DNA of 30,648 nt from a virus (lineage: Duplodnaviria > Caudoviricetes). Numbering within the stretch: position 1 is the first letter of the stretch; the number at the start of each line of letters is the position of its first letter. A program made the translations under genes and the position numbers. Positions 10,578-30,648 of this stretch are shown piece after piece. The stretch is from the IMG/VR virus record IMGVR_UViG_3300016263_000533, positions 1-30,648 of that record. The stretch is one strand, 5' to 3'. Below the pieces are notes generated by a model. The model saw only the letters and a program-made list of their open reading frames with translations, did not search any database and was not told the DNA's origin.

Positions 10578-11381
10578 TCAGCCTACTACGACCTGCTCGG
10601 CGTTTTCTTGTAGTGGCCCCCAGACGGCATCGAGGGCGTCGGAGTGGATCGCGTGGATCTGCGGGACGAGGCGTTGGATGTCAGCGTTCTTCACGCGTTG
10701 CGCTGTGCCTGCCCCGATGTGCTGCTTGTAGAGCATCTTGGGGATGTGGTGGCAGCGGGTGGCGAGGGCTGTTCGGATTATCAGTTCGTAGTCGTCTGCG
10801 ACCGGCAGGCTGGGGTTGTGTCCGTCGATGGTGTGGTAGACGGATGCCCGCCATGCCCGGACGTGGTTGGGGGCTGAGACGATGTGGGAGAGGGTTGTCC
10901 GGTTCATGGGGACGCGGTGGGCCCAGACGCCGTGGGTGTCGTCCCAGTAGTGGGAGCCAAAGCCCATGCCCCAACCGTCGGGGTAGCGGCCCGACTCGCC
11001 GTTGGGGAACAGCTCGGTGCAGTCTGACCAGACGAAGCCAACCTCGGGGTCTTGGAAAGCCTCAGCGATCAAGGCCAGGGCGTCGGGGGTGAGTTCGTCG
11101 TCGTGGTCTAGTTCGACCAGGATGTCGCCTCTGCCGAGCATGAACGCATCGTGCTTCACCGAGCCGATGTTGCCGCCGCTGGGGGTATGGGGCCGGTATG
11201 CCCGGAGTCGGTAGCGTTCGTCGGCTGCGAGGCCGTACAGGTGGTTCCAAGTGTCGTAGCCGGGGCTGTCGTCTAGGACTACCCATTCCCAGTCGGTGTG
11301 GGTTTGGTTCTTGAGCGAGGCCCAGGTTCGGGCCAGGGTTTCACGGGGCGTGTTGTACGTCGGCGTGATAACTGAAATCAT
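10578..11381 (-). CDS. Glycosyltransferase family 2 (GT-A fold)
   Basis: MISVITPTYN, WEWVVLDDS, DxD motif ELDHDD, ADDYEL. Confidence 0.9.
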   Translation of the reverse strand: MISVITPTYNTPRETLARTWASLKNQTHTDWEWVVLDDSPGYDTWNHLYGLAADERYRLRAYRPHTPSGGNIGSVKHDAFMLGRGDILVELDHDDELTPDALALIAEAFQDPEVGFVWSDCTELFPNGESGRYPDGWGMGFGSHYWDDTHGVWAHRVPMNRTTLSHIVSAPNHVRAWRASVYHTIDGHNPSLPVADDYELIIRTALATRCHHIPKMLYKQHIGAGTAQRVKNADIQRLVPQIHAIHSDALDAVWGPLQENAEQVVVG

Positions 11382-12169
11382 CAGAACTTGATGATGTAAC
11401 TCAACACCATTGTCGGCTGTGTATTGTTGTGCGCAGATGACGCATTTGCAGCGGTGTTATTTACGTTCGTAACCGTCACCGTACCAGCAGGGGTAAACGA
11501 GTGGGTGTGCCGTGCCGAGGCACCACCAGATGCCGTGCTAGACCCACTAGGAAGCGTTGTCCCGAGGATGCTAGAAGATGCAGCAGCGACATTTGCGTTC
11601 CAGAATGGTGTTGCAGTTGTATGCGTGTGGTCAGGAGAATCGTTACCAGTGGTACCAGCGGACCCAGAGAATGTGGCTGTGTTTGCATGGCTGTGGGCTG
11701 GGACACCAGATTGCGCAGAAGTAAGTGTGACTGTTTCGGCACCGCCACTAGCACCAAGAGTTGTGCCTGTGATTCCAGAACCGCCAGATGTCAAACGGTT
11801 GGCAGCGGTGCCGCCCATGTCATCTTCACCAGCGACAACACGACCACGGAGGTCGGGCAGGTTGAACGTCGTGGAGCCGTCACCCGACCCATAGGTGGTG
11901 CTGACAACAGCGAATAGGTCAGCGTAGGTGGTTCGGCTTACTGCCTGTCCAGCGCACAACAGCCATCCTGTCGGGGCTGTGGAGCCTGCGTATGGGTTGA
12001 CTGTTCCAGCAGGAGCCGAGACAGCACCTTGCCATGCGCTACCAGTCCAAAACTTGAGAGCAAATGTGTCTGTTTCGAAAATCAGTTGCCCGGTGTACGG
12101 GGTGGTGGGGCGGGTGGTTGAGGTGCACACCCCAGGCCGCAGCCCTGTTGCGTTACTAGAGATTGCCAT
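11381..12169 (-). CDS. Tail fibre with phage tail-collar domain (262 aa)
   Basis: PAGTVNPYAGSTAPTGWLLCAGQAVSRTTYADLF...TTFNLPDLRGR...HNNTQPTMVLSYIIK. Start moved to ATG 12169 (TAATG). Confidence 0.85.
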   Translation of the reverse strand: MAISSNATGLRPGVCTSTTRPTTPYTGQLIFETDTFALKFWTGSAWQGAVSAPAGTVNPYAGSTAPTGWLLCAGQAVSRTTYADLFAVVSTTYGSGDGSTTFNLPDLRGRVVAGEDDMGGTAANRLTSGGSGITGTTLGASGGAETVTLTSAQSGVPAHSHANTATFSGSAGTTGNDSPDHTHTTATPFWNANVAAASSSILGTTLPSGSSTASGGASARHTHSFTPAGTVTVTNVNNTAANASSAHNNTQPTMVLSYIIKF

Positions 12170-12318
12170 TATGCGCCTGCCTTGACCCAACCAGCGGCGA
12201 CCAATTCTTCTTCGGTCGGCTGCGGCTCGTCACGCTCCCAGAGGATAATTCCTTTAGCGTGGTCAGCGGCCCAACCGTCGTGAAAACCAAGAGCAGTAAG
12301 AACCTCAACAATATTCAT
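12169..12318 (-). CDS. Small tail-fibre chaperone-like protein (49 aa)
   Basis: ATG 12318 overlaps the upstream TGA; W...PQPTEEEL motif; lies between fibre genes. Confidence 0.6.
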   Translation of the reverse strand: MNIVEVLTALGFHDGWAADHAKGIILWERDEPQPTEEELVAAGWVKAGA

Positions 12319-12920
12319 GCCGCAATCTCCATCAACGTAATTCGTGAGTCCTGCCACCCAGACCCAATAGACCTTTGGACATTCACGCCAGCAGCATTCA
12401 CCCCACTATTGAAAAACCGTGTTTTGTAGGTAACAGCAGACGTGGTTGCCGGAGAGTCAAGAATCTGCAAATCCCATGAGTCAATATGCAACTGGCTGAC
12501 GTTCTGGTACAGAAACCCATTCATGTAATGAATGATTGTGCTGTTGCGGTATGTGTTGATGCCAACAGATGATGCTGCATTGCCCGCTTCCTTAGACACG
12601 CCCTGCTGGTTGATTATCACAAGGATTTTGCTACTTGTTGATGTCGGTGTGATTGTTGCAGAAAGGCCCGTATCTACTTCTGTGCTCGTATTGTTTGTTA
12701 CCCCAATGCCGTACGCACCGTGCACGACCTGCAAGACGGTCCCGTTGGTCGGGGTGCCGAACGCCAGGGTGCGCCATGCTGTGCCGTTCCAGATTTGCAG
12801 CAGGTCCGTGTCGGTGGTGTAGATGACCTGGCCTTCGTACGGTGACGCTGGTTTGGTTGTGCTGGTGCATACGCCTGGTCGGGCGATGGCGCTGGTCGGC
12901 AGGTAGTTACTCAGGCCCAT
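12315..12920 (-). CDS. Tail fibre/receptor-binding protein (201 aa)
   Basis: N-terminal RPGVCTSTTKPASPYEGQ module; C-terminal VLQVV...ITPTSTSSKILV...DSPATTSAVTYK...ITLMEIAA beta domain common in aquatic phage fibres. Confidence 0.75.
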   Translation of the reverse strand: MGLSNYLPTSAIARPGVCTSTTKPASPYEGQVIYTTDTDLLQIWNGTAWRTLAFGTPTNGTVLQVVHGAYGIGVTNNTSTEVDTGLSATITPTSTSSKILVIINQQGVSKEAGNAASSVGINTYRNSTIIHYMNGFLYQNVSQLHIDSWDLQILDSPATTSAVTYKTRFFNSGVNAAGVNVQRSIGSGWQDSRITLMEIAA

Positions 12921-13447
12921 TAGAGTGCCGTCGCTTTGATGATGTAGTTCAACAGAAGTGTCGGCTGCATATTGTTGTGTGCCGCCCCACCACCCGTGCT
13001 TGAGGTGGCGAAATAACTGAACGAGGACGTGCCGCCACCAGCAGCGTTGGCGTTGTTTAGTCGGCTCCCGCTTGTTGCTCCGCCAAACGCTGATTCTGTG
13101 GTGTGGCTGTGCGATGGCATTTCACTCGTAGTCAAAGTGTGTGTTTGGGCACCACCGTTTGTGCCCAGCGTATTTGCCCAGTCCAATCGGCCTGCGTCTG
13201 TGCCGTTCATGTTGTCCAAACCTGCAACGACACGACCACGAAGGTCCGGCACATTGAACGTAGTCGAACCGTCGCCTGACCCGTAGGTGGTGCCGATAAC
13301 AGCGAACAGAGCACCGTAATCGGTTCGTGATACAGCCTGCCCAGCGCACAAAAGCCAGTTGGCAGGGGCAGACGAGCCAGCGAACGGGATGACAGAGCCA
13401 GCAGGTAGTGCCCCAACGGTGCTGCCAATGCCAGAAGAAATCCCCAC
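12920..13447 (-). CDS. Tail-collar domain protein (175 aa)
   Basis: PAGSVIPFAGSSAPANWLLCAGQAVSR...TTFNVPDLRGR...HNNMQPTLLLNYIIKA. Confidence 0.85.
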   Translation of the reverse strand: MGISSGIGSTVGALPAGSVIPFAGSSAPANWLLCAGQAVSRTDYGALFAVIGTTYGSGDGSTTFNVPDLRGRVVAGLDNMNGTDAGRLDWANTLGTNGGAQTHTLTTSEMPSHSHTTESAFGGATSGSRLNNANAAGGGTSSFSYFATSSTGGGAAHNNMQPTLLLNYIIKATAL

Positions 13448-13450
13448 GGA

Positions 13451-13789
13451 CTAGACCTCTTTCTCCCACCCGTTGACCGTCACCGTCACAACCGACGCAG
13501 AATCCGAATACCCGTAAAACTGCTCCGTCGCAGTCATCACCACAGCACAATCCAACACCACCGTGTCCCCGGCAGCAATCGGCAACGCCGAGAAGATACG
13601 GTTCGCAGCAGTAGCCGCCGTACCGATAGCGAGATACACCAGACGGTCCGAACCGTCCGTGTTGCAGAGAATCACCTGCTTGGTAATCCAGACACGGGAT
13701 GACGGGACAGCCGACCCGACAGTTGCGTTCGATGCGGTCAAAGCAACAGGCCCAACAAGCCTCTTTTCGGTGCGGTCACCAACAGCCAT
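13451..13789 (-). CDS. Small beta-rich structural protein (112 aa)
   Basis: TAATG-coupled to the collagen fibre; beta-strand pattern ending VTVTVNGWE. Confidence 0.65.
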   Translation of the reverse strand: MAVGDRTEKRLVGPVALTASNATVGSAVPSSRVWITKQVILCNTDGSDRLVYLAIGTAATAANRIFSALPIAAGDTVVLDCAVVMTATEQFYGYSDSASVVTVTVNGWEKEV

Positions 13790-15411
13790 TACGGGGCTAC
13801 CTCCATAATCATGATGGCTGCGAACGTGGTCGAAGTCATCGGGTCAGTAGTGATTTTCTGCGGACGGAACGTGATGTTCGCAGCGTCGTACACCAACGCA
13901 AAGTTGTTTTGCGGGCCAGTACCAGCCGTACCAGCAGACGGTTTGATGTTGATGGTCGCAATAGAGTCCGTCAGGCTGAGAGTGGCGTCGGTGGTCGTGG
14001 CCGACAGCAACGCCTGCGGGCCGGACGACGCCGTATCCCGAGCGATAACAATGCCAGTGTTCTCAACCCATGCCGAGCCGTTCCAGACGAGGGCTTTGTT
14101 GTTGAACGTGCCGTTAGCGAGCACGGTGCCCTGTGGTCCTTGTGGGCCTTGAGCCCCTTGCGGACCTTGGGGGCCTTGGCTGCCTGTGGCTCCCTGCGGG
14201 CCGGTGTCGCCCTGGAAACCCTGCGGCCCCTGAGGACCTTGCGAACCTTGGAAACCTTGTGGACCTTGAGGACCAATGTCGCCCTGGAAACCTTGCGGTC
14301 CTTGCGGGCCCTGGGCTCCTTGCGGGCCTGTTGCTCCTTGCGGACCCTGCGGGCCGGTAGCGCCCTGTGGTCCTTGAGCGCCGGTAGCACCCTGGGGTCC
14401 TTGTGGGCCTGTCGATCCTTGCGGGCCAGTATCTCCCTGTGCGCCCGTGGCACCTTGGGGTCCCTGAGCCCCCTGTGCTCCTGTTGCACCCTGCGGACCC
14501 TGCGAACCTTGCGGGCCGATTGCCGCGATAACAAACAACATTTGCTGATTGTTCGGGAAGCTGAACGTCGAGGTGACCAGCGTGACGGGCAGCTCAATGT
14601 AATCAACCTGCACAACCGGGGTGCCAGAGACTGTCCACTTCTGGTAGTTGGTGTGCAGCGTCTTGTCTTGCAAGATGATCGTGTCACCCGACTTGATCGT
14701 GGCAAGGAAAATGTCAATGTCGTAGCCATCTTGGTCAACGTGGCTGACGTTGATTTGTGTTGCTGACGCTTGGGTGGCGTTGTTCCAGATGATGTGGCCA
14801 GCCAGCGGGTCGCCAGAGGTAATGGTTGTCTTGGCCTGGTAGTCGTAGAAGCTCGAGGATTGGCCGTCGTTGCCTTGTGGGCCTTGGGCACCCTGAGCCC
14901 CCGTCGCACCTTGCGGCCCCTGAAACCCCTGCGGGCCCTGCGGGCCTTGAGTGCCTTGCGCCCCAGTCGCGCCTTGCGCTCCTTGTGGCCCCTGAAAACC
15001 TTGGGGACCAGTCGCTCCCTGCGCCCCCGTTGCCCCCTGTGCTCCTTGGGCACCCTGGGAGCCTTGAGGTCCCTGAAAACCTTGAGGTCCCTGCGGGCCT
15101 TGGGAACCAGTAGTGCCCTGTGGGCCTTGGGCTCCAGTTGCTCCTTGCGCTCCTTGGAATCCTTGAGGACCCTGGGCTCCTTGCGGGCCGGGAACAGTCG
15201 AGGCCGCACCTTGGGCACCTTGGGCACCTTGGGCACCCTGCGGGCCTTGAGCCCCCTGCGATCCTGTCGCGCCAATCGGGCCCATCGTGCCAGTGACTAC
15301 AGCAAGAATCTGGGTCTGCTGGACAGTGGTAACAAGTTGCGGCGCGTTACCAACGGTGGTCTGGATGTCCGGGTCCGTCGGGATGATGACGGTAATGGCC
15401 TCGGTTGCCAT
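13789..15411 (-). CDS. Long collagen-like tail fibre (540 aa)
   Basis: Two long G-X-Y tracts separated by a ~115-aa globular domain. Confidence 0.85.
14128..14518. repeat. Collagen-coding 9-bp tandem repeats (C-proximal tract, GPQ/GAT/GFQ)
   Basis: Degenerate 9-bp periodicity encoding G-X-Q/T; boundaries approximate. Confidence 0.9.
14872..15285. repeat. Collagen-coding 9-bp tandem repeats (N-proximal tract)
   Basis: For example (ccttgggca)x3 near 15209-15235; boundaries approximate. Confidence 0.9.
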
Positions 15412-21712: not shown

Positions 21713-23314
21713 TTACCTCCAGACGTTCCGACGTTTGCCTTGGCGATCAAGTTTTTCCATAAATTTCTGCACGCGACCCTCAGCCCCTGGCGCGTACTTT
21801 TTCTTGTCCCGCTTCGATAGTTCGTATGGTCTACACCCTAACAGATAGCGCAGGGCGTCGACGGCATGGTCTTCGTCGCGGCTGTCGAGGTCTTCTGGGT
21901 TGGTTTGGTCGTGGCGCATGAGGGGAATCGTGCGCACAAGGTTCTGGCAGGAGTTGAAAATTTTGAGTCGGACCTTGCCGTCGACAGGGTGGGCCATCAT
22001 GTAGCGGCGCATATTCTGCCAACCGCCGACTCGAGCGTTTTTGGCCTTGGTGACGACAACACCTTGGGCGTTGTATTGCGCTGCCACCGTCGTGCCCAAG
22101 CCGGCGACGTTGGAGAAGGTCGACGGGTCGATCACGGTAATAGAAATGTTTTCGCCCTTGCCGTGCTCGTCGACGCTCATGGACTTCACGAGGCGCGCCT
22201 GTTCGGCGGTCGTCAAGTTCTTTTGGTAGGCCTCACGGTAGATGTACATCGTTCCGTCCGATGGGTCGAGCGCACCCCAAAGGCAGCAGAACGGGTTAGC
22301 AGTACCGAAGTCGATGGCCCTAAACCTTTGCCATGTTTCTGGTATCGCAAAAGGCTCAATGACGTGGGTTTGGCGGTCAAATTCACCGAAATACTGGCCG
22401 GAGAAGGTATCCCAGTCGCCAAGCAACTTTTGCCGACGCTCGACCTCGGGCAGCATCGACAGGTGCTTCTTGTACGTCGGGTCGATAAATGGGTTGTCGA
22501 TGACTGTTGACGGAACAAACGCGACGATCAGGTGCTTGTCGGGGTCGTGGTCGATCTCGACCTTCTCGAGTTCGGCCAGGTCGTCTGGCAGCGGGACGAC
22601 CCGCACGATGTCCGGGTTCTCGAATCCTTCACTGACGTCGTACACAACAGCGTTCCTGCCGTAGTGCGTGGGGGTTACTAGCATCTGGTACAGGAATTGG
22701 TGGCCCTTGTCGCCTGGGTTAGTGGCGAACATGACGTGGGTCCGGACGCCGGCGGCGGCCATTTTGCGGCTGGTGCGGAGGCGGCCTGAGATCATCAGCA
22801 TTTGGTACGGCGAGAATTGTGTGGCCTCATCGAAGGCCACGAAGTCGTATTCGGCTGACATGAACTGGCCGACGTCTTCGTCGCGGGCGCAGTAGCCATA
22901 TTCGATAATTGACCCGTTTTCGTACCACCAGGCCTTCATGTTGTCCACGGATCGCAACTGGGCCTTGACTTTCAACTGCGCATAGCGCACCTGGGTGCGG
23001 ATAATCAGCGACCGGCGCAATTCGGGCAGGCTGGTTCGGATCAGCAGGCTGCGGTGGCCGGGGTAGCGCATCGAGAGGTTGTGAGCGTGGTAGGTGATGA
23101 GTTCCGACTTCCCACCACCCGCCGCGCCCCCGTAGAGGAGCCAATCCACCTTGTTGAGCAAGATGTTGGCCCTCGACTGCCGGTCGTTCCCGACGAGCGA
23201 CCAGGCAGATAGGTCTTCTTCTAGAAGTTGTAAGTATTCGTCTTGTTCGGCCGCGGTCAGCGACGCAAACTCCTCATCGGTCAGGAGGAGGGTCTTGTCG
23301 ACCGTTATGCTCAT
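21713..23314 (-). CDS. terL: Terminase large subunit
   Basis: Walker A YGGAAGGGKS, Walker B FVAFDEAT, ATNPG coupling motif, nuclease motifs AIDFG and DHAVDALRY. Confidence 0.95.
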   Translation of the reverse strand: MSITVDKTLLLTDEEFASLTAAEQDEYLQLLEEDLSAWSLVGNDRQSRANILLNKVDWLLYGGAAGGGKSELITYHAHNLSMRYPGHRSLLIRTSLPELRRSLIIRTQVRYAQLKVKAQLRSVDNMKAWWYENGSIIEYGYCARDEDVGQFMSAEYDFVAFDEATQFSPYQMLMISGRLRTSRKMAAAGVRTHVMFATNPGDKGHQFLYQMLVTPTHYGRNAVVYDVSEGFENPDIVRVVPLPDDLAELEKVEIDHDPDKHLIVAFVPSTVIDNPFIDPTYKKHLSMLPEVERRQKLLGDWDTFSGQYFGEFDRQTHVIEPFAIPETWQRFRAIDFGTANPFCCLWGALDPSDGTMYIYREAYQKNLTTAEQARLVKSMSVDEHGKGENISITVIDPSTFSNVAGLGTTVAAQYNAQGVVVTKAKNARVGGWQNMRRYMMAHPVDGKVRLKIFNSCQNLVRTIPLMRHDQTNPEDLDSRDEDHAVDALRYLLGCRPYELSKRDKKKYAPGAEGRVQKFMEKLDRQGKRRNVWR

Positions 23315-23823: not shown

Positions 23824-24519
23824 TTATGCGTTGTCACTTATTGTGCCATTCAGGGCGTGAAATTTCCATACTTGCATAGCAAGCTCGACGACGCCTTGGA
23901 TCGCCGCGTTTTCTTCCGCGGTGATAACTCCGGCCTGAACACCTTCGTGCGCAAGGTTGCCAACGTAGGACGCGCCCATAAAGAGAGCAGCAGCGGTCCT
24001 CGACTGAATCGGGTCTTCCCAGCCGGCCATGATGAGCGCAGCGGCGGCCTGGGCGGTGAGTTGCGATGCCCCGAGCGTGGGGGTTACCTCCATAACGAGG
24101 CGGGTCTGCTTGGGGATGTCTGTCTTTTCCAACTTCAGTGGTTTCCTTTGTAGGGCCAACTGTTCCCAGTCGGGTCGGTTTCGGTTCTCGAATCCCCGAA
24201 TGACGGCCTTCTCCCGCCGTATAGGCGCGGGTACGTCGATCTTGGGCTGCTGTAGAGAGATGACCACAGGTTCTGTTTGTCCTTCGCGTATGCGCTGTCT
24301 CTCACGCGGGCTTTTACCCCCAAACATCCCAAACCGATCGTTATCCGGGTCTTGAGCCATAGCCTCGGCAAGGCATTCTTCGCGTACATCGCAGCGGTTG
24401 CAGTAGGAACGAGCAACAGCAAAGTAATCGCGGCCTTGCGGCCTCTCTGGGAACCAAATGTTCGCGTCAAGGCCACGGCAAACCGCATCATGCCACCAGA
24501 ATTCACGATTTACGTCCAC
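23824..24519 (-). CDS. whiB: WhiB-family Fe-S transcription factor with long C-terminal extension
   Basis: W..DAVCRG...WFP...CNRCDVREECL...GMFGGKSPRER (four Cys plus G[IV]WGG-like turn). Start likely GTG 24519; the track's start at 24597 lies deeper in the HNH gene. Confidence 0.85.
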   Translation of the reverse strand: MDVNREFWWHDAVCRGLDANIWFPERPQGRDYFAVARSYCNRCDVREECLAEAMAQDPDNDRFGMFGGKSPRERQRIREGQTEPVVISLQQPKIDVPAPIRREKAVIRGFENRNRPDWEQLALQRKPLKLEKTDIPKQTRLVMEVTPTLGASQLTAQAAAALIMAGWEDPIQSRTAAALFMGASYVGNLAHEGVQAGVITAEENAAIQGVVELAMQVWKFHALNGTISDNA

Positions 24520-24937
24520 CGCTCGCCGCTGCACAGACTCGGCACCGGCGCGAACCGTTGCTAGGTTGAATGTAGACATTCTCAGAGGTGTATTCATGCC
24601 CTTTCGGGCAATGTGTTTTGCGAAAATTGCCGTTGTTCCGAGCGTTCTCCCTGTTGGGTAGTAGTCGAAGATGGCTCGGATTGCAGCATTTGCGGTTGTA
24701 ACAAGTGTGATCGACCGTCATGTCGTTCGGGATGTCATCATTGTGATGCAAAATCCAAGCAACACGATGAGCAAGCCTTACGCTTTTGCCGTCCCAGGTC
24801 TGACCATAACCATGCGATCCGCTTGACTGCTTCCATGGCCAACATTCGTCTTCGCCCCGAACGTCAACGCGCGTCCACCAGTCCATTGCGCGCAATTTGT
24901 CAATGTCCAAAGGGTATTTGGTTGGCGTAATGCTCAA
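24503..24937 (-). CDS. Free-standing HNH (His-Me finger) homing endonuclease
   Basis: ECWPW...GYG...AHRVAW...VDHTCYNRKCCNPSHL...N and C-terminal THCPKGHEYT..N...RRCRVC; more AT-rich than flanks. Confidence 0.9.
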   Translation of the reverse strand: MSITPTKYPLDIDKLRAMDWWTRVDVRGEDECWPWKQSSGSHGYGQTWDGKSVRLAHRVAWILHHNDDIPNDMTVDHTCYNRKCCNPSHLRLLPNRENARNNGNFRKTHCPKGHEYTSENVYIQPSNGSRRCRVCAAASGGRKS

Positions 24938-25320
24938 AACGGCTCGCTTTCTGGCCCGTCATACTGCGGTGTTTGACTTTGCGGGGCCCTTGCGCCCTTG
25001 TCGATGGTGACGGTGGCGAATCGGAGGTTGGCTGCGACGTCTTCGGCGACCAGTTCGGTCGAGTAGCCGGTGCTTCCGTCCTTCTTTTCGTACTTCCGAC
25101 GCTGGAAACGGCCGATCACGACAACTCGAGCACCTTTGGAGAGGCTCGCCGCGCAGTTTTCGGCCAGTTCACCGAAGCAGGAGACGTCCATCCAGAGCGG
25201 TTCATCGGTCTTTTTGCCGTTCGACACGCCGATAGTGAAACTACAGATGGGCAAGCTGCTGCTGGTGTAACGCAGTTCGGGCTCTTTGGCCAGGTTGCCG
25301 ATCATGGTCATGTGGTTCAT
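24934..25320 (-). CDS. ssb: Single-stranded DNA-binding protein (128 aa)
   Basis: MIGNLAKEPELRYT...LAENCAASLSKGARVVVIGR...; acidic tail ESEPF. Start moved to ATG 25320. Confidence 0.93.
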   Translation of the reverse strand: MNHMTMIGNLAKEPELRYTSSSLPICSFTIGVSNGKKTDEPLWMDVSCFGELAENCAASLSKGARVVVIGRFQRRKYEKKDGSTGYSTELVAEDVAANLRFATVTIDKGARAPQSQTPQYDGPESEPF

Positions 25321-25658
25321 TGGACTATCTCCCATACGGTGGTGGTTCTTTTGTGTGCTGTCAAGGCTTTCACCCCTGAATCGCGCAGGATTCCAAGCTC
25401 GACAAGTTCTTTGCGCCGCGACCGGCAACCCGAGGGGCTCAATTTGAGGTTGAGTTCAGCAACGAGGTCGATGAGTTCTTCGTCGGTCATTGAGTTGCGG
25501 ACACGGAACGCGGCCATGACGATCTTTTGGCCTTTGGTTAGGTCGACGGATGCCGCCGCCTGGAAACTGGTGGTTGGGTCGCCCCAGCGGGTCATCTGCT
25601 TCGGGTCCTTGTAGTAGCGGCTGCGGCCTTCTTCCCAGAGCATCATTTGGTCACTCAT
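25317..25658 (-). CDS. Winged-HTH DNA-binding protein (DPxTSxxAA family)
   Basis: RWGDPTTSFQAA...MTDEEL...SGCRSRRKELVELG...DSG...VW; start likely ATG 25658. Confidence 0.75.
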   Translation of the reverse strand: MSDQMMLWEEGRSRYYKDPKQMTRWGDPTTSFQAAASVDLTKGQKIVMAAFRVRNSMTDEELIDLVAELNLKLSPSGCRSRRKELVELGILRDSGVKALTAHKRTTTVWEIVQ

Positions 25659-25848
25659 AGCGCGTGGCCTCAACTGGGTTTGCCAAAAGATTGTGATACG
25701 TCAGTACAGCTTCAATTGAATCACGCAGGATTCTCAATTTTTCTTCGTTCCAGCGGCCGACGGTCACTCCGCCAGAGTGCATTTCGGCCAGCAGCAAAAA
25801 AGACATCGACAGGAGGTGTAGAAACATATGGCGTTCTTGGTCACTCAT
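25651..25848 (-). CDS. Hypothetical protein (65 aa)
   Basis: Fills the gap between neighbours with 8-bp overlaps. Confidence 0.6.
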   Translation of the reverse strand: MSDQERHMFLHLLSMSFLLLAEMHSGGVTVGRWNEEKLRILRDSIEAVLTYHNLLANPVEATRYE

Positions 25849-27364: not shown

Positions 27365-27505
27365 CCCAGTCTGCCCGGGCAACAACAGTGAGGCGCGAGC
27401 CCCCAGGGCGAAGCGCAACCCAACTGAGCGACAGCGAAGGCGGGAGAAACACCAACCCGAGACAGACCGGCAACCACGGCACAGAACGAACCGCGAAAAG
27501 CGGCC

Positions 27506-27547
27506 TGTGGACAAGACCCAGAGTCATCCACAGACGGCTGTGGACAA
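27506..27547. promoter_or_regulatory. Cluster of three DnaA boxes
   Basis: TGTGGACAA (reverse complement TTGTCCACA) at 27506-14 and 27539-47, with TCATCCACA at 27524-32 in the opposite orientation; matches TT(G/A)TCCACA. Confidence 0.7.
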
Positions 27548-27569
27548 CGGTGAGAGCCGAACCACAGAC

Positions 27570-27675
27570 AACACCCCCCTCAAGGCACCCCAAACGTACG
27601 GGAATGGGTACTAGACCATACCCCACGGGGTCCCCCCACGGGGCGGGGGGGTGCGCGTGCGCGGGCGTGGGCGGG
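27570..27675. other. Putative packaging start / genome terminus region
   Basis: C- and G-tracts, CCCCACGGGG twice (27621-30, 27634-43), coinciding with a sharp oligonucleotide-usage boundary. Inference only. Confidence 0.4.
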
Positions 27676-28009
27676 CTCGGGCTCGGTCGGCGACGGGGCT
27701 CGACGCGTGCCGAGCGTGCTGCCAGATCGGCGGCGGGGGGGAAGGGTCGAGGGGCAGCGGGTCGAGCGGGTCGAGAGTCCAGGCGGCAGGGCTGCGGGTC
27801 TGGCGGGGCTCGACGTTGCCCACACCGTGAGCGCGTCGGCATACCCCCCGACCTTCGGCGGGTCGAGTGTGTCGGCGAGTGTGCTGCGGGTGCTGGTTGC
27901 CGGCGGCGGGGGGTCGAGGGGTCCGCGACGGGCGTTTATTTCGCGTCTGCCGCGTCGGGCGGGGTCCGTTCGGGTGAAGGGTGCGGGCGATCTGGTCGAG
28001 GGAATGAGA

Positions 28010-28050
28010 GAGCCCGCCGCACTCGGTGGGGGTCGAGTGGCGGCGGGCTC
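28010..28050 (-). terminator. Hairpin ending the early arm transcript
   Basis: GAGCCCGCCGC / GCGGCGGGCTC 11-bp stem, extendable with ACTCG/CGAGT, 25 nt after the 28076 stop; weak pyrimidine tail. Confidence 0.6.
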
Positions 28051-28075
28051 GGTGGGCTCGCGGTGCGGGTGCGGG

Positions 28076-28381
28076 TTACTGGGTGGCGATCACCTGCCTG
28101 CCCGCTTCGATCAGCCGCCGCAGCGCGTCGAGCGCGCCCGTGTAGAGGTCGATCTCCTCGAAGTAGTCCGCGTCACTCGCCAGCCCTTCGGGGTCGATCA
28201 CGCCGCGCGCGAGTTCGTCGAGCGCACCGAGGCAGTACCGCGCGACCTCGGCAAGCGTCTCGGCGTAGGTGGCGGCGATCTCGGCGACCGTCTCCCCTTG
28301 CGCTTCGGCGACTGCTTCGCGCACGTCCTCGGCGAGTGTGGCGAGCACTTCGGCGAGGTGCTCGACGTTGTACGCGGTCAC
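28076..28381 (-). CDS. Small acidic helical early protein (101 aa)
   Basis: GTGA-coupled to the upstream gene; 21 Asp/Glu versus 6 Arg and 0 Lys by hand count. Confidence 0.75.
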   Translation of the reverse strand: MTAYNVEHLAEVLATLAEDVREAVAEAQGETVAEIAATYAETLAEVARYCLGALDELARGVIDPEGLASDADYFEEIDLYTGALDALRRLIEAGRQVIATQ

Positions 28382-29064
28382 TTGCCTGCCCCCTTCGCGG
28401 TGCGGCGTGCCTTCGGTGCGGCGGTGACGCGGTGCGGCTCGCGTAGCAGGCTCTCGGCGAACTCGACGAGGGGCGCGAGGTCGGCGGACAGGCGGTGCGC
28501 CAGTAGTCCCGCGTCGAGTTGTCGAGCGACCGCGGCGGTGCGCTTCACTTCGACGAGATCGCCCGCGGGGGCGAGCACGCTGCGCACGTCGGCGGTCGTG
28601 AGTGCGCGCCCGTCTTCGACGATCAAAACAACGTGTTGCCGACGTTCCGCGCCCGCGTGCGCCGCCTGCGTCGAGCGACGGAGTGCGAGGTAATCGGCGG
28701 TCACTACTTCGACGGCGTGCGCGGTGAAGCCGTGGGCGGCGAGTGTCGCGGCGGTCGGCGTGTCGTCGTGAAGGTCTGTCACGATCACGTCGAAGCGCGG
28801 CGGCAGATCGGAGAGCCCGACGAGTCCGGCGAGCGCGAGCGTGTCGAGTTCGCCGAAGCGCGTCACGTCGAGCAAGTGAAGGCGCGTCTTTACTTCGGTG
28901 CTGAGTTCGTCGCCCGTCGGCAGCGCGAGCGCGGCGCGGGTGTCGATGTCGTTAGAAACGAGCGCGACGCGGTGACCCGCTTCGGCAAGCGCGAGCGCGA
29001 GCGCGCACGCGGTGACCGTCGTGCCTTGTCCTGCCTTGTGGCTTCTGAGTGTTACTGCTTTCAC
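28378..29064 (-). CDS. ParA/MinD/CpaE(Ssd)-like P-loop protein with degenerate Walker A
   Basis: SHKAGQGTTVTACALA...GHRVALV...FDVIVTD...YLALRR; strong RBS motif. Confidence 0.75.
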   Translation of the reverse strand: MKAVTLRSHKAGQGTTVTACALALALAEAGHRVALVSNDIDTRAALALPTGDELSTEVKTRLHLLDVTRFGELDTLALAGLVGLSDLPPRFDVIVTDLHDDTPTAATLAAHGFTAHAVEVVTADYLALRRSTQAAHAGAERRQHVVLIVEDGRALTTADVRSVLAPAGDLVEVKRTAAVARQLDAGLLAHRLSADLAPLVEFAESLLREPHRVTAAPKARRTAKGAGK

Positions 29065-29156
29065 GGTGTGACCCTTTCGTTAGTGGCGGGCGGTGTTGCC
29101 CGTCGTGTCAGATGATACACGCGAACACGGGCGGCGCGTGAGATCGACGGGGAACG

Positions 29157-29186
29157 AAAAGAGCCCGCGCCGAGTGCGCGGGCTCT
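29157..29186 (-). terminator. Intrinsic terminator
   Basis: AGAGCCCGCGC / GCGCGGGCTCT stem with TTTT on the minus strand, after the 29211 stop. Confidence 0.8.
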
Positions 29187-29210
29187 CTCTCGGTTGAGGG
29201 GTCGAGCGCG

Positions 29211-29705
29211 TCAGCGCGTGAACGCGTCCGCCATTGCTTCGGCGAGGGGTCCGCGCGCTTCGCCCTCGTCGTCTACCGTCTCGCCCGTGTCGGGGAAGTG
29301 GAGACGCGAGAAGGCACGCCCGTCGTGATCGACGCACGACACGAGACGCACGCGGCGGCGACTCGGGTGCGAACTCGGCGCGCCGTCGATCTCGCCCGTT
29401 GCGGGGTTGATCGGCGCAGCCCAGCCCCACGTTACGAGCGCGACCGCGTAGCACCCTTCGGGGCGTGCGTACTCGCCCGCACGGAAGTCGTCGAGGAGGT
29501 CGTACACGTCCATTGACGTGCCGACCTTCTCCGCGTGCGTGCCGGTGAGCCCGTGAAGCGACGCAGGCGAGAACGCCCACAGTTCCGCGAGACTCGCGCC
29601 CTCGTTGTTTTCCACGGCGTGCCAGCCGCGCACCGTGTCGAGGAGATCGACGCAGCCACGCACGTCTGCCGCTTCCGTTGCTTTCTTGCTCTTGCTCTTG
29701 CTCAC
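29211..29705 (-). CDS. Hypothetical early protein (164 aa; WGWAAP...PSSHPSRRRVRL)
   Basis: Start moved to GTG 29705 behind the repeated RBS motif and its own promoter; followed by a terminator. Confidence 0.75.
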   Translation of the reverse strand: MSKSKSKKATEAADVRGCVDLLDTVRGWHAVENNEGASLAELWAFSPASLHGLTGTHAEKVGTSMDVYDLLDDFRAGEYARPEGCYAVALVTWGWAAPINPATGEIDGAPSSHPSRRRVRLVSCVDHDGRAFSRLHFPDTGETVDDEGEARGPLAEAMADAFTR

Positions 29706-29944
29706 TTGTGACCCTTTCGGTAGGTGACGCGTCGCCCGTTGCGGCGCGTCGGCATTGACAATACGACACAAGCAACGCCGAGCGCAAGCACCAGCGCAAG
29801 CACCGCAGGGGTCGAGCTCGACGAGTCCCGCGGACCTTCGGCGAAGTGGCGCGCGCCCGCCTGGACGGTGGCGACCGCTTCGACGCTGCACGCTTGCGGC
29901 TCGCCGAGGAACGTGCCGCAGATGGGGCTAATTCTGTCTTCCAT
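29702..29944 (-). CDS. Hypothetical protein (80 aa, possible C-terminal TM)
   Basis: Has the repeated RBS motif and a GTGA overlap, but its 3' half overlies the next cassette's promoter. Confidence 0.45.
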   Translation of the reverse strand: MEDRISPICGTFLGEPQACSVEAVATVQAGARHFAEGPRDSSSSTPAVLALVLALGVACVVLSMPTRRNGRRVTYRKGHK

Positions 29945-30093
29945 AGGTGTGACCCTTTCTAGGTTGCGGCGGCGATCTGCCGCCGAGGGTGAAAGTACCC
30001 GCCGAGCGTGTTTCGGTGGTGGATCGTCGAAAACCGCCTGTCACGTTGCGCGGAGATCGACGAGCCGACTGCCCGACGGGTGAAGGGTGCGGG

Positions 30094-30258
30094 TTACTCG
30101 GTCCCGCGGCGGGTGATCTCGTGGCGGGGGGCGTGGCGACCGACACCGAAGGGGAAGCGGTCACACTCGACGCCGCCGCCCTCGACCGCCCACACACCGC
30201 CGCCCACCGCGTACACCACACACCCGCACCACACACACACCGACGGGGGCGGGGTCAT
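30094..30258 (-). CDS. Small Cys/His (Zn-ribbon-like) protein (54 aa)
   Basis: ATG 30258 overlaps the upstream TGA; CVWC...C...H. Confidence 0.55.
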   Translation of the reverse strand: MTPPPSVCVWCGCVVYAVGGGVWAVEGGGVECDRFPFGVGRHAPRHEITRRGTE

Positions 30259-30648
30259 ACCCGCACCGCCCGCCGCACTTCGAGCCGCTGCCACGTCTCC
30301 GGCGACCCCGCGCCACCGTGGCGGGGGAAAATAACGTCACGCACCTGCCCCGAGGGGAGACACGCACCACACGCCGCACACGCGCCCGCGACGTGACCCA
30401 CCGAGAGCGAAGCGCGCCGCCCGTCGAGCCCCGAGACGTACGACGGCCCGAAGCCGTCGCCCGCCCACACGCTGCCCGCGGGGCAGGTCAGTCGCCCGAG
30501 TTGCTCGGTGCGGAACTCCTCGACGGTCACACGCAAGGCAGCCGCCTCGGTCGAATTGGCGACCAAGTACGCGACGGGCAGACCCCACCGCGCCGCCGCC
30601 TTGCCGTGGGTGCGCACGTTCTCGGCATCGACCGACACGAACCACCGC
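30255..30648 (-). CDS. C-terminal part of a GP88-like (Cys-rich, radical-SAM-like) protein, truncated at right edge
   Basis: Frame open to the window end; CPA...GACAACGAC...VIFPRH matches my recollection of the GP88-family C-terminus. Confidence 0.55.
   Translation of the reverse strand, partial: RWFVSVDAENVRTHGKAAARWGLPVAYLVANSTEAAALRVTVEEFRTEQLGRLTCPAGSVWAGDGFGPSYVSGLDGRRASLSVGHVAGACAACGACLPSGQVRDVIFPRHGGAGSPETWQRLEVRRAVRV

Follow-up and report, generated by a model that had tools for sequence, protein, structure and literature searches.

Restriction selection on the phage DNA that enters a cell first is known from few models. T5-like phages supply a direct precedent: in T5 and BF23, restriction sites matter only in the first-step-transfer repeat, an end region of small early genes, while the remaining genome also contains such sites (PMC10644984). 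Murciaviruses supply another, with sub-genomic restriction selection at the variable, first-entering end of Autographiviridae such as Murciavirus and T7 (PMC12455610). The leading regions of conjugative plasmids are also GC-rich, first-entering and equipped with their own promoters, but the signal is weak in a large plasmid survey, which reports no systematic depletion of restriction targets in them (PMC13478746). Finally, the highly iterated palindromes (HIP1) of cyanobacteria are lineage-specific, reach very high density and are methyltransferase-type words, spread genome-wide in cells (PMC4390886). Here we describe a terminal arm in an uncultured virus in which restriction-type words have been lost, and in whose relatives words are both lost and hoarded. 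The window analyzed is the entire IMG/VR virus record IMGVR_UViG_3300016263_000533 (30,648 bases), and three of its features are needed at the outset:

21713..23314, minus strand: terminase large subunit, transcribed away from the junction and 4.3 kb off; the anchor for finding relatives

27592..27655, minus strand: conserved junction motif (C-run, G-run, CCCC, then CCCGTAYKTTT), found by pattern match across IMG/VR; the composition step lies here

27656..30648, minus strand: terminal arm, 70% GC, ending at the contig end

This locus resembles each of the described systems and matches none of them. The T5 repeat spans 9.7 kb and comes with an injection stop, whereas here the arm is 3–5 kb, its depth shows no sign of doubling, and sites are also hoarded. 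The Murciavirus work concerns single Type I motifs, by experiment, whereas our case concerns several Type II-like words of 4–6 bp, read from sequence. Unlike in Autographiviridae, no RNA polymerase gene was found in the window or among the scanned open reading frames (ORFs) of relatives, and in half of the arms transcription runs toward the end. In contrast to plasmid leading regions, the window arm shows a 20- to 60-fold loss of GGCC, and in contrast to HIPs, the excess is confined to the end arm of a phage. Searches of the literature, which covered few subscription journals and no supplements, returned nothing that describes this family’s arm or the hoarding of sites at one end of a phage genome.

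The depletion in the arm is real. The arm is poor in GGCC, CCGG, CCSGG, CCWGG and most 6-bp palindromes, and rich in CTCGAC/GTCGAG, TCGA, GATC and CGCG. Under an order-2 Markov model of the arm (27651–30648), GGCC occurs once against 23.4 expected and CCGG 4 times against 26.9, and no other 4-mer is as strongly depleted; for 6-bp palindromes the count is 27, whereas 300 simulations averaged 89 and never fell below 54. By comparison, every 3-kb window of the rest of the stretch holds at least 13 GGCC sites. A sequence-only reading, made by manual scan, had proposed that the region from 27510 onward is purged of restriction-type palindromes, and its counts were accurate: within 27510–30648 there is a single GGCC (at 30445, vs. 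13 in bases 1–1000), no CATG, GTCGAC or CTCGAG alongside 27 GTCGAG/CTCGAC, one AGCT (29815), and CCWGG at 27779 and 29860 only, while internal Met is absent from the 228-aa and 101-aa proteins and all three internal Met codons of the arm follow A. A better edge than 27510 is the junction motif near 27635–27655. Depletion is significant for GGCC, CCGG and the total of 6-bp palindromes, but not individually for CATG, GTCGAC or CTCGAG (0 vs. 1.9, 0 vs. 1.9 and 0 vs. 0.7 by codon shuffle; CATG 0 vs. 8 by flank scaling), and CCGG, CCSGG and TGCA had been overlooked as depleted words. Two palindromes, likewise overlooked, run the other way: TCGA (46 vs. 19–31) and GATC (20 vs. 8–14) are over-represented 2–6-fold; CTCGAC/GTCGAG is also in excess (27 vs. 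7.5 expected). Likewise, the rest of the window uses GGCC, GTCGAC and CTCGAG freely, as had been claimed, but not AGCT (41 vs. 75) or 6-bp palindromes (290 vs. 493), and GGCGCC is absent there against 22 expected. Within that remainder, 12001–15000 holds 12 6-bp palindromes against 46 expected, as poor as the arm, and the tail-fibre block at 11000–14500 is nearly free of CGCG (0–2 per kb) and GATC (0–3 per kb) and probably came from a phage with other avoidance.

Could such a pattern simply follow from GC content and from early genes that use codons as the host does? GC content at third codon positions is 0.82 in the arm and 0.73 in the core, GCG is favored over GCC in the arm, and plasmid leading regions are reported to be GC-rich and codon-adapted (PMC13478746). 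However, when synonymous codons were permuted within the five arm ORFs, the purge persisted with the arm’s own codons (GGCC 1 vs. 23.8 ± 3.1; CCGG 3 vs. 17.0), and none of 1000 shuffles reached the observed GGCC or CCGG lows. Hoarding survives the same treatment in the relative G010 (TCGA 77 vs. 49; GATC 51 vs. 24). Both signals also reach noncoding DNA, the 873 nt of which in the window arm contain no GGCC and 12 CTCGAC/GTCGAG. Because purge and hoarding survive codon shuffles, codon usage is refuted as sole cause, and we give it next to no weight.

Another candidate is an assembly chimera, or a module swapped in recently, with the composition of its donor, and arms do swap within this phage family: G009 and G010 share 95% identity around terL while their arms have no blastn match, and L115 and L128 share 98.6% identity in the core but 77% in the arm. 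The sequence-only reading had itself raised a chimeric join and a recent transfer, and both fail for the window. An independent contig spans 26045–27998 with one difference, and G006, the nearest relative whose arm is complete (terL 96% identical), aligns collinearly with the window over 4.7 kb at equal silent divergence (at four-fold sites, 0.48 for arm genes and 0.44 for core genes, near saturation). In addition, the signature occurs outside the arm in none of nine long genomes, and orthologous AAA/vWA genes differ in signature across four arms (TCGA 77, 43, 3 and 12). A swap or chimera is largely refuted for the window and very improbable.

The comparison with G006 supports a GGCC loss that is site-specific and often synonymous. 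In this relative (full arm in G006/L099) the arm is ~4–4.6 kb long, whereas the window arm is cut off by the contig end. None of the 31 GGCC sites in the G006 arm genes is common to the window, and 15 differ purely by synonymous changes; in the core, 20 of 30 sites are common to both. Amino-acid divergence is 0.38 for arm genes and 0.12 for the core. GGCC sites are also present in these genes in four other relatives tested. Methyl-cytosine deamination was rejected as the cause of loss, because differences at GGCC sites are mostly C-to-G or C-to-A, not C-to-T, and GC rises.

The compartment recurs across the family. The junction-motif pattern matched 72 IMG/VR loci, of which 69 were kept (L102, L108 and L144 were dropped as probable chance matches), yielding 41 arms, 35 after removal of 6 near-duplicates and 33 with a flank control (2 without). 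The first 38.3 kb of G001, apparently a different phage in the same record, was left out of comparisons. This 79-kb IMG/VR record (L046–L049) seems to be two different phages (~38 and ~41 kb) merged into one, the former almost without GATC and CGCG. We scored 17 restriction-type words, a list picked after seeing the data, with a purge defined as at most 1/4 of expectation and hoarding as at least 2.5-fold; the arms are related, so counts across the 33 are not independent events. At least one word is purged in 29/33 arms compared with 2/20 flank-versus-flank controls, and arms fall below their flanks for CCGG (30/33), GTAC (31/33), AGCT (25/33) and GGCC (24/33). The window’s GGCC count, 1 against 65 when scaled to the flank, is the most extreme among the 33. 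GC lies above the flank in 32/33 arms, by a mean of 6.8 points. Measured against each genome’s own word usage, the most deviant 3-kb window sits 3–4 kb upstream of the motif in 9/9 long genomes. The loss, its sharp edge at the motif and its place in the same compartment of every long relative are observed directly, as are the site-specific synonymous differences.

The junction motif (minus strand, G-run from 27635) is probably a physical genome end or packaging start, perhaps with a short terminal repeat. Among contigs ending within 7 kb on the arm side, 5/41 start 1–8 nt before the G-run (two are near-identical phages), and 4/33 contigs end 55–144 nt after it; the clustering of contig starts at the motif has a binomial P of ~1e-6 to 1e-8. 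The word signal steps off at the junction, where word excess ends within 400 bp, and fades inward over 4–5 kb. As a stable hairpin, the junction did no better than shuffles (z 0.93). A conserved element, CTCCCGCC-TCGCT..CGCTC-GTTGGG, lies ~110–310 nt inside the junction (window ~27405–27440, minus strand) and was matched with one pattern in 28/68 loci; it resembles plasmid priming signals and may be part of an origin.

In lambda, P22 and SPP1, packaging begins at the terminase end and the DNA that is last in is first out; in T7, early genes lie at the end opposite the terminase. If packaging here starts at the junction motif and runs toward the terminase, the arm would therefore be packaged last and ejected first, an entry order that we infer from terminase position and this packaging polarity. 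The nearest isolates by capsid (29–30% identity), Jasmine, an Arthrobacter cluster AV podovirus, and Microbacterium phage Shocker, are alike in having terminal repeats (1,330 and 484 bp) and a terminase a few kb from the left end (4.7 and 6.8 kb), but they encode a DNA polymerase and a primase/helicase and show no compositional arm. Jasmine’s terminal repeat encodes an Lsr2-like protein (L154:373–927). Lsr2 binds AT-rich DNA, and evasion of Lsr2 silencing could also favor a GC-rich entering arm. Terminal repeats are carried by cluster AV phages (PMC5794937). Depth leans against a long terminal repeat in our family, being lower over the arm rather than doubled (6 vs. 8.5 and 10.6 vs. 13.3 beside the arm), a comparison (~0.7–0.8x flank, in long contigs) that is weak because it uses one depth per contig and may carry GC bias.

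The best explanation for the word loss, and one that we hold to be narrowly probable, is restriction selection at first entry. The arm, at a fixed genome end, would enter the host first, and host restriction enzymes would cut it before phage products could protect the rest; it would thus work like a first-injected region. Later DNA might be shielded by one or more arm proteins or by a C5 methyltransferase, encoded just inside the arm in several relatives. Raised GC could be adaptive, allowing rapid expression as in the leading regions of plasmids, and each lineage would purge a different set of words, tracking its host’s enzymes. Hoarded words, in the weakest step of this scheme, would be sites that the host methylates without cutting, favored near the entering end.

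Restriction could also strike the arm alone whatever the entry order, if the arm escapes methylation because it is a terminal copy made at packaging or the last DNA packaged. This possibility needs a fixed end only, and the C5 methyltransferase beside the arm in several relatives could cover the rest of the genome. Against this, depth drops over the arm instead of doubling (again the weak, contig-level estimate), a simple pattern scan of the complete genome G002 found no methyltransferase motif, and hoarding is left unexplained. We regard an unmethylated arm as improbable.

Restriction selection at first entry must itself answer to several observations that weigh against it, and by itself it leaves hoarding unexplained. 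A word is hoarded in 15/33 arms compared with 0/20 controls, and strong enrichment of palindromic 4-mers is about as frequent as strong depletion (27 and 28 of 528, respectively). We looked for a genome-long gradient of avoidance and found none, and in 7 long genomes the last decile, which holds the arm, shows no depletion of 6-bp palindromes (median observed/expected 0.75 vs. 0.28–0.58 elsewhere). A phage methyltransferase beside the arm, tried as a predictor of GGCC state, showed no pattern. No known anti-defence or anti-restriction family was found among 102 arm proteins searched against Pfam or 88 against PHROGs, or in NCBIfam and PADLOC scans. Of 38 loci, 20 have arm genes that face away from the end and 18, the window among them, have arm genes directed toward it; genes with the latter orientation cannot pull DNA in as in T7. 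Contig ends at the G-run could be sequencing dropouts. Finally, seven Lake Biwa actinobacterial drafts, incomplete and of low coverage, are reported to show neither methylated motifs nor methyltransferases (PMC6329791).

Hoarded words can exceed expectation many-fold. Scaled to the flank, examples include CTCGAG (56 vs. 3), TCGA (155 vs. 19), GATC (71 vs. 9), CCWGG (44 vs. 12) and CGCG (58 vs. 13), and base composition gives a similar picture for relatives’ arms (CTCGAG 60 vs. 1.1; TCGA 167 vs. 10.8). The same word can flip between purge and hoarding: GGCC counts among close relatives are 1 in the window, 2 in L120, 55 in L099 and 73 in L112, CCSGG counts are 0 in the window and 44 in L153, and CGCG is hoarded in 10 arms and purged in 3. 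Palindromic 4-mers vary among phages about twice as much as in equal-length control DNA; among non-palindromic 4-mers, 181 are strongly enriched and 118 strongly depleted of 3960. Phage C5 methyltransferases adjoin some of the family’s arms and would be candidate cognate enzymes for hoarded words. CGCG is reported as methylated across metagenome-assembled genomes (MAGs) of marine Acidimicrobiia (PMC8919816), which fits, weakly, a hoarding of host-methylated words.

Two broader accounts embrace both directions of change. One is an end-anchored molecular drive, in which recombination or repair started at the end produces variable heteroduplex tracts whose outcome is biased by methylation-guided repair or cutting, so that GC rises, methyltransferase sites are created and cut sites erased without any first-entry advantage. 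Such a drive would account for purge and hoarding together, for the near-universal GC rise and for the junction step with inward fading. Arms also usually diverge faster than cores, with more transversions (6.4% vs. 1.1% and 17% vs. 4.4%), divergence being about equal in 2 of 12 pairs covering both regions, and the family encodes RecT-, RusA- and SSB-like proteins while the 25 ORFs scanned in two genomes gave no polymerase, primase or helicase match. For the iterated palindromes of cyanobacteria, a repair model tied to methylation has been put forward (PMC4390886). The equal silent divergence between the window and G006 speaks against such a drive, although both values are near saturation. In the TCGA-hoarding L136, the transversion neighbors TGGA and GCGA are drained like the transition neighbor TTGA; simple Vsr-type T:G repair, considered as the process behind hoarding, is therefore excluded. 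We know of no end-anchored, methylation-guided process in phages, and judge this drive unlikely, if less so than an unmethylated arm. In the other account, the 3–5 kb end arm might be a methylome-tuned entry module, which each lineage strips of host-cut words and actively fills with host-methylated words (up to one per 20 bp), driven either by a self-mimicry signal to methylation-reading defences or by the end-anchored drive just described. We treat this module as a tentative possibility, one that is doubtful as it stands.

The remaining elements of the window arm are as follows:

27690..28075, minus strand: noncoding segment at the end, holding six GGGTCGAG copies (27744–28030) and, past the last gene, a hairpin; from sequence

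28076..28381, minus strand: 101-aa acidic protein with 21 D/E and 6 K/R; no family above cut-off

28378..29064, minus strand: 228-aa ParA/MinD-like protein with a deviant Walker A, HKAGQGTT; Pfam CbiA, E 1e-5

29065..29200, minus strand: intergenic module with a hairpin, a -10-like TATCAT box (29120) and the ribosome-binding motif GAAAGGGTCAC, from sequence comparison

29211..29708, minus strand: 165-aa protein from a 17-member arm family, which is among the two largest; weak PPA1309 likeness

29702..29944, minus strand: 80-aa protein with a hydrophobic C-terminal stretch; no family

30255..30648, minus strand: GP88-family protein truncated by the contig end, its C-terminal 130 aa present; 82% identity to L099:3395–4360

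These features support a view of the arm as a set of small, fast-evolving genes with their own putative promoter and ribosome-binding modules. The motif GAAAGGGTCAC is common to three arm genes, its other two copies lying at 29718 and 29959, and is restricted to the arm side of the junction in 7/7 close relatives examined. The canonical deviant Walker A motif of ParA/MinD ATPases is KGGxGKT, and it is not intact in the 228-aa protein, where HKAGQGTT lacks the second lysine; NCBIfam matches cover just the first 40–70 residues of this protein, all below cut-off, and its family occurs in 6 loci. The 101-aa protein, by its charge, is a candidate DNA mimic or inhibitor, and an ESM Atlas search with it gave no usable match. 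The 165-aa protein falls below the PPA1309 family cut-off (NF040618, 15.7 bits vs. 70, E 0.012), and Atlas offers a lead (0.90) with PF28004 on 40% of members. Its predicted model is a confident alpha/beta fold (pLDDT 85), for which Foldseek returned nothing at E ≤ 0.001; a pilin was rejected as structural match, the best (VIA, Z 6.7, root-mean-square deviation 3.4 over 91 residues) lying within the range of common arrangements. The same protein has no sequence match in PDB, and a tblastn search against INPHARED gave a single match at E 0.007, which was disregarded. The GP88 homologue L099:3395–4360 matches PF17338 (E 1e-22). Five Rfam matches all lie far under the gathering score.

Arm gene content varies across relatives. 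Gene calling gave 226 genes in 89 families, and most arm proteins match no family. Elsewhere in the family, arms encode an AAA ATPase alongside a large partner, which we presume to be vWA-like from its DxSGSM motif, or else DUF7447 or an integrase. A tyrosine recombinase lies at the arm’s inner edge in about half of the phage family (17 genes, one family; e.g., L136:2196–3116), and arms with this gene are transcribed away from the end. At L099:1299–2578, a C5 cytosine methyltransferase is split over adjacent ORFs of 346 and 80 aa, both matching PF00145.

The predicted genes of the window are on the minus strand and include WhiB, SSB, an Rv2179c-like exonuclease, terminase, a P22-like portal, capsid, an SU10-type adaptor and tail fibres. 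This gene set points to a podovirus-like phage of Actinomycetota. Those runs holding the window that have a named habitat are freshwater, aquatic, wetland or sediment metagenomes, and complete relatives measure 40–44 kb. One arm-protein homologue carries the name of an Ilumatobacteraceae MAG, which is a lead, and only that, toward Acidimicrobiia as host. A prophage and host search with terL against GTDB returned just three distant matches (31–35% identity, Clostridia) and no prophage of the phage family, and blastn of the arm against INPHARED found no match. The two genomes scanned for replication genes, G002 (L050–L052) and G006 (L062), also contain WhiB-like genes, and the family may replicate by recombination using host enzymes. 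Elsewhere in the window, one gene within the tail group (10578–11381) encodes a family 2 glycosyltransferase. The HNH gene region (24486–24983) is missing from close strains in three runs and a 65-aa gene (25646–25837) in two runs; both look like mobile insertions.

Restriction selection on first-injected regions was already known; what is new is a two-way, lineage-switching selection on words in an end arm, with a 20- to 60-fold signal at a conserved end in dozens of uncultured freshwater actinophages. The analysis marks a small set of arm genes as anti-defence candidates, and the words of the arm offer a possible route to infer host restriction specificities. Avoidance of restriction gives no reason to expect hoarding in this compartment; the hoarding suggests either an undescribed selective benefit of methylation sites or a local mutational drive. 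If the arm were indeed a methylome-tuned entry module, its sequence would directly report the restriction and methylation specificities of the host.

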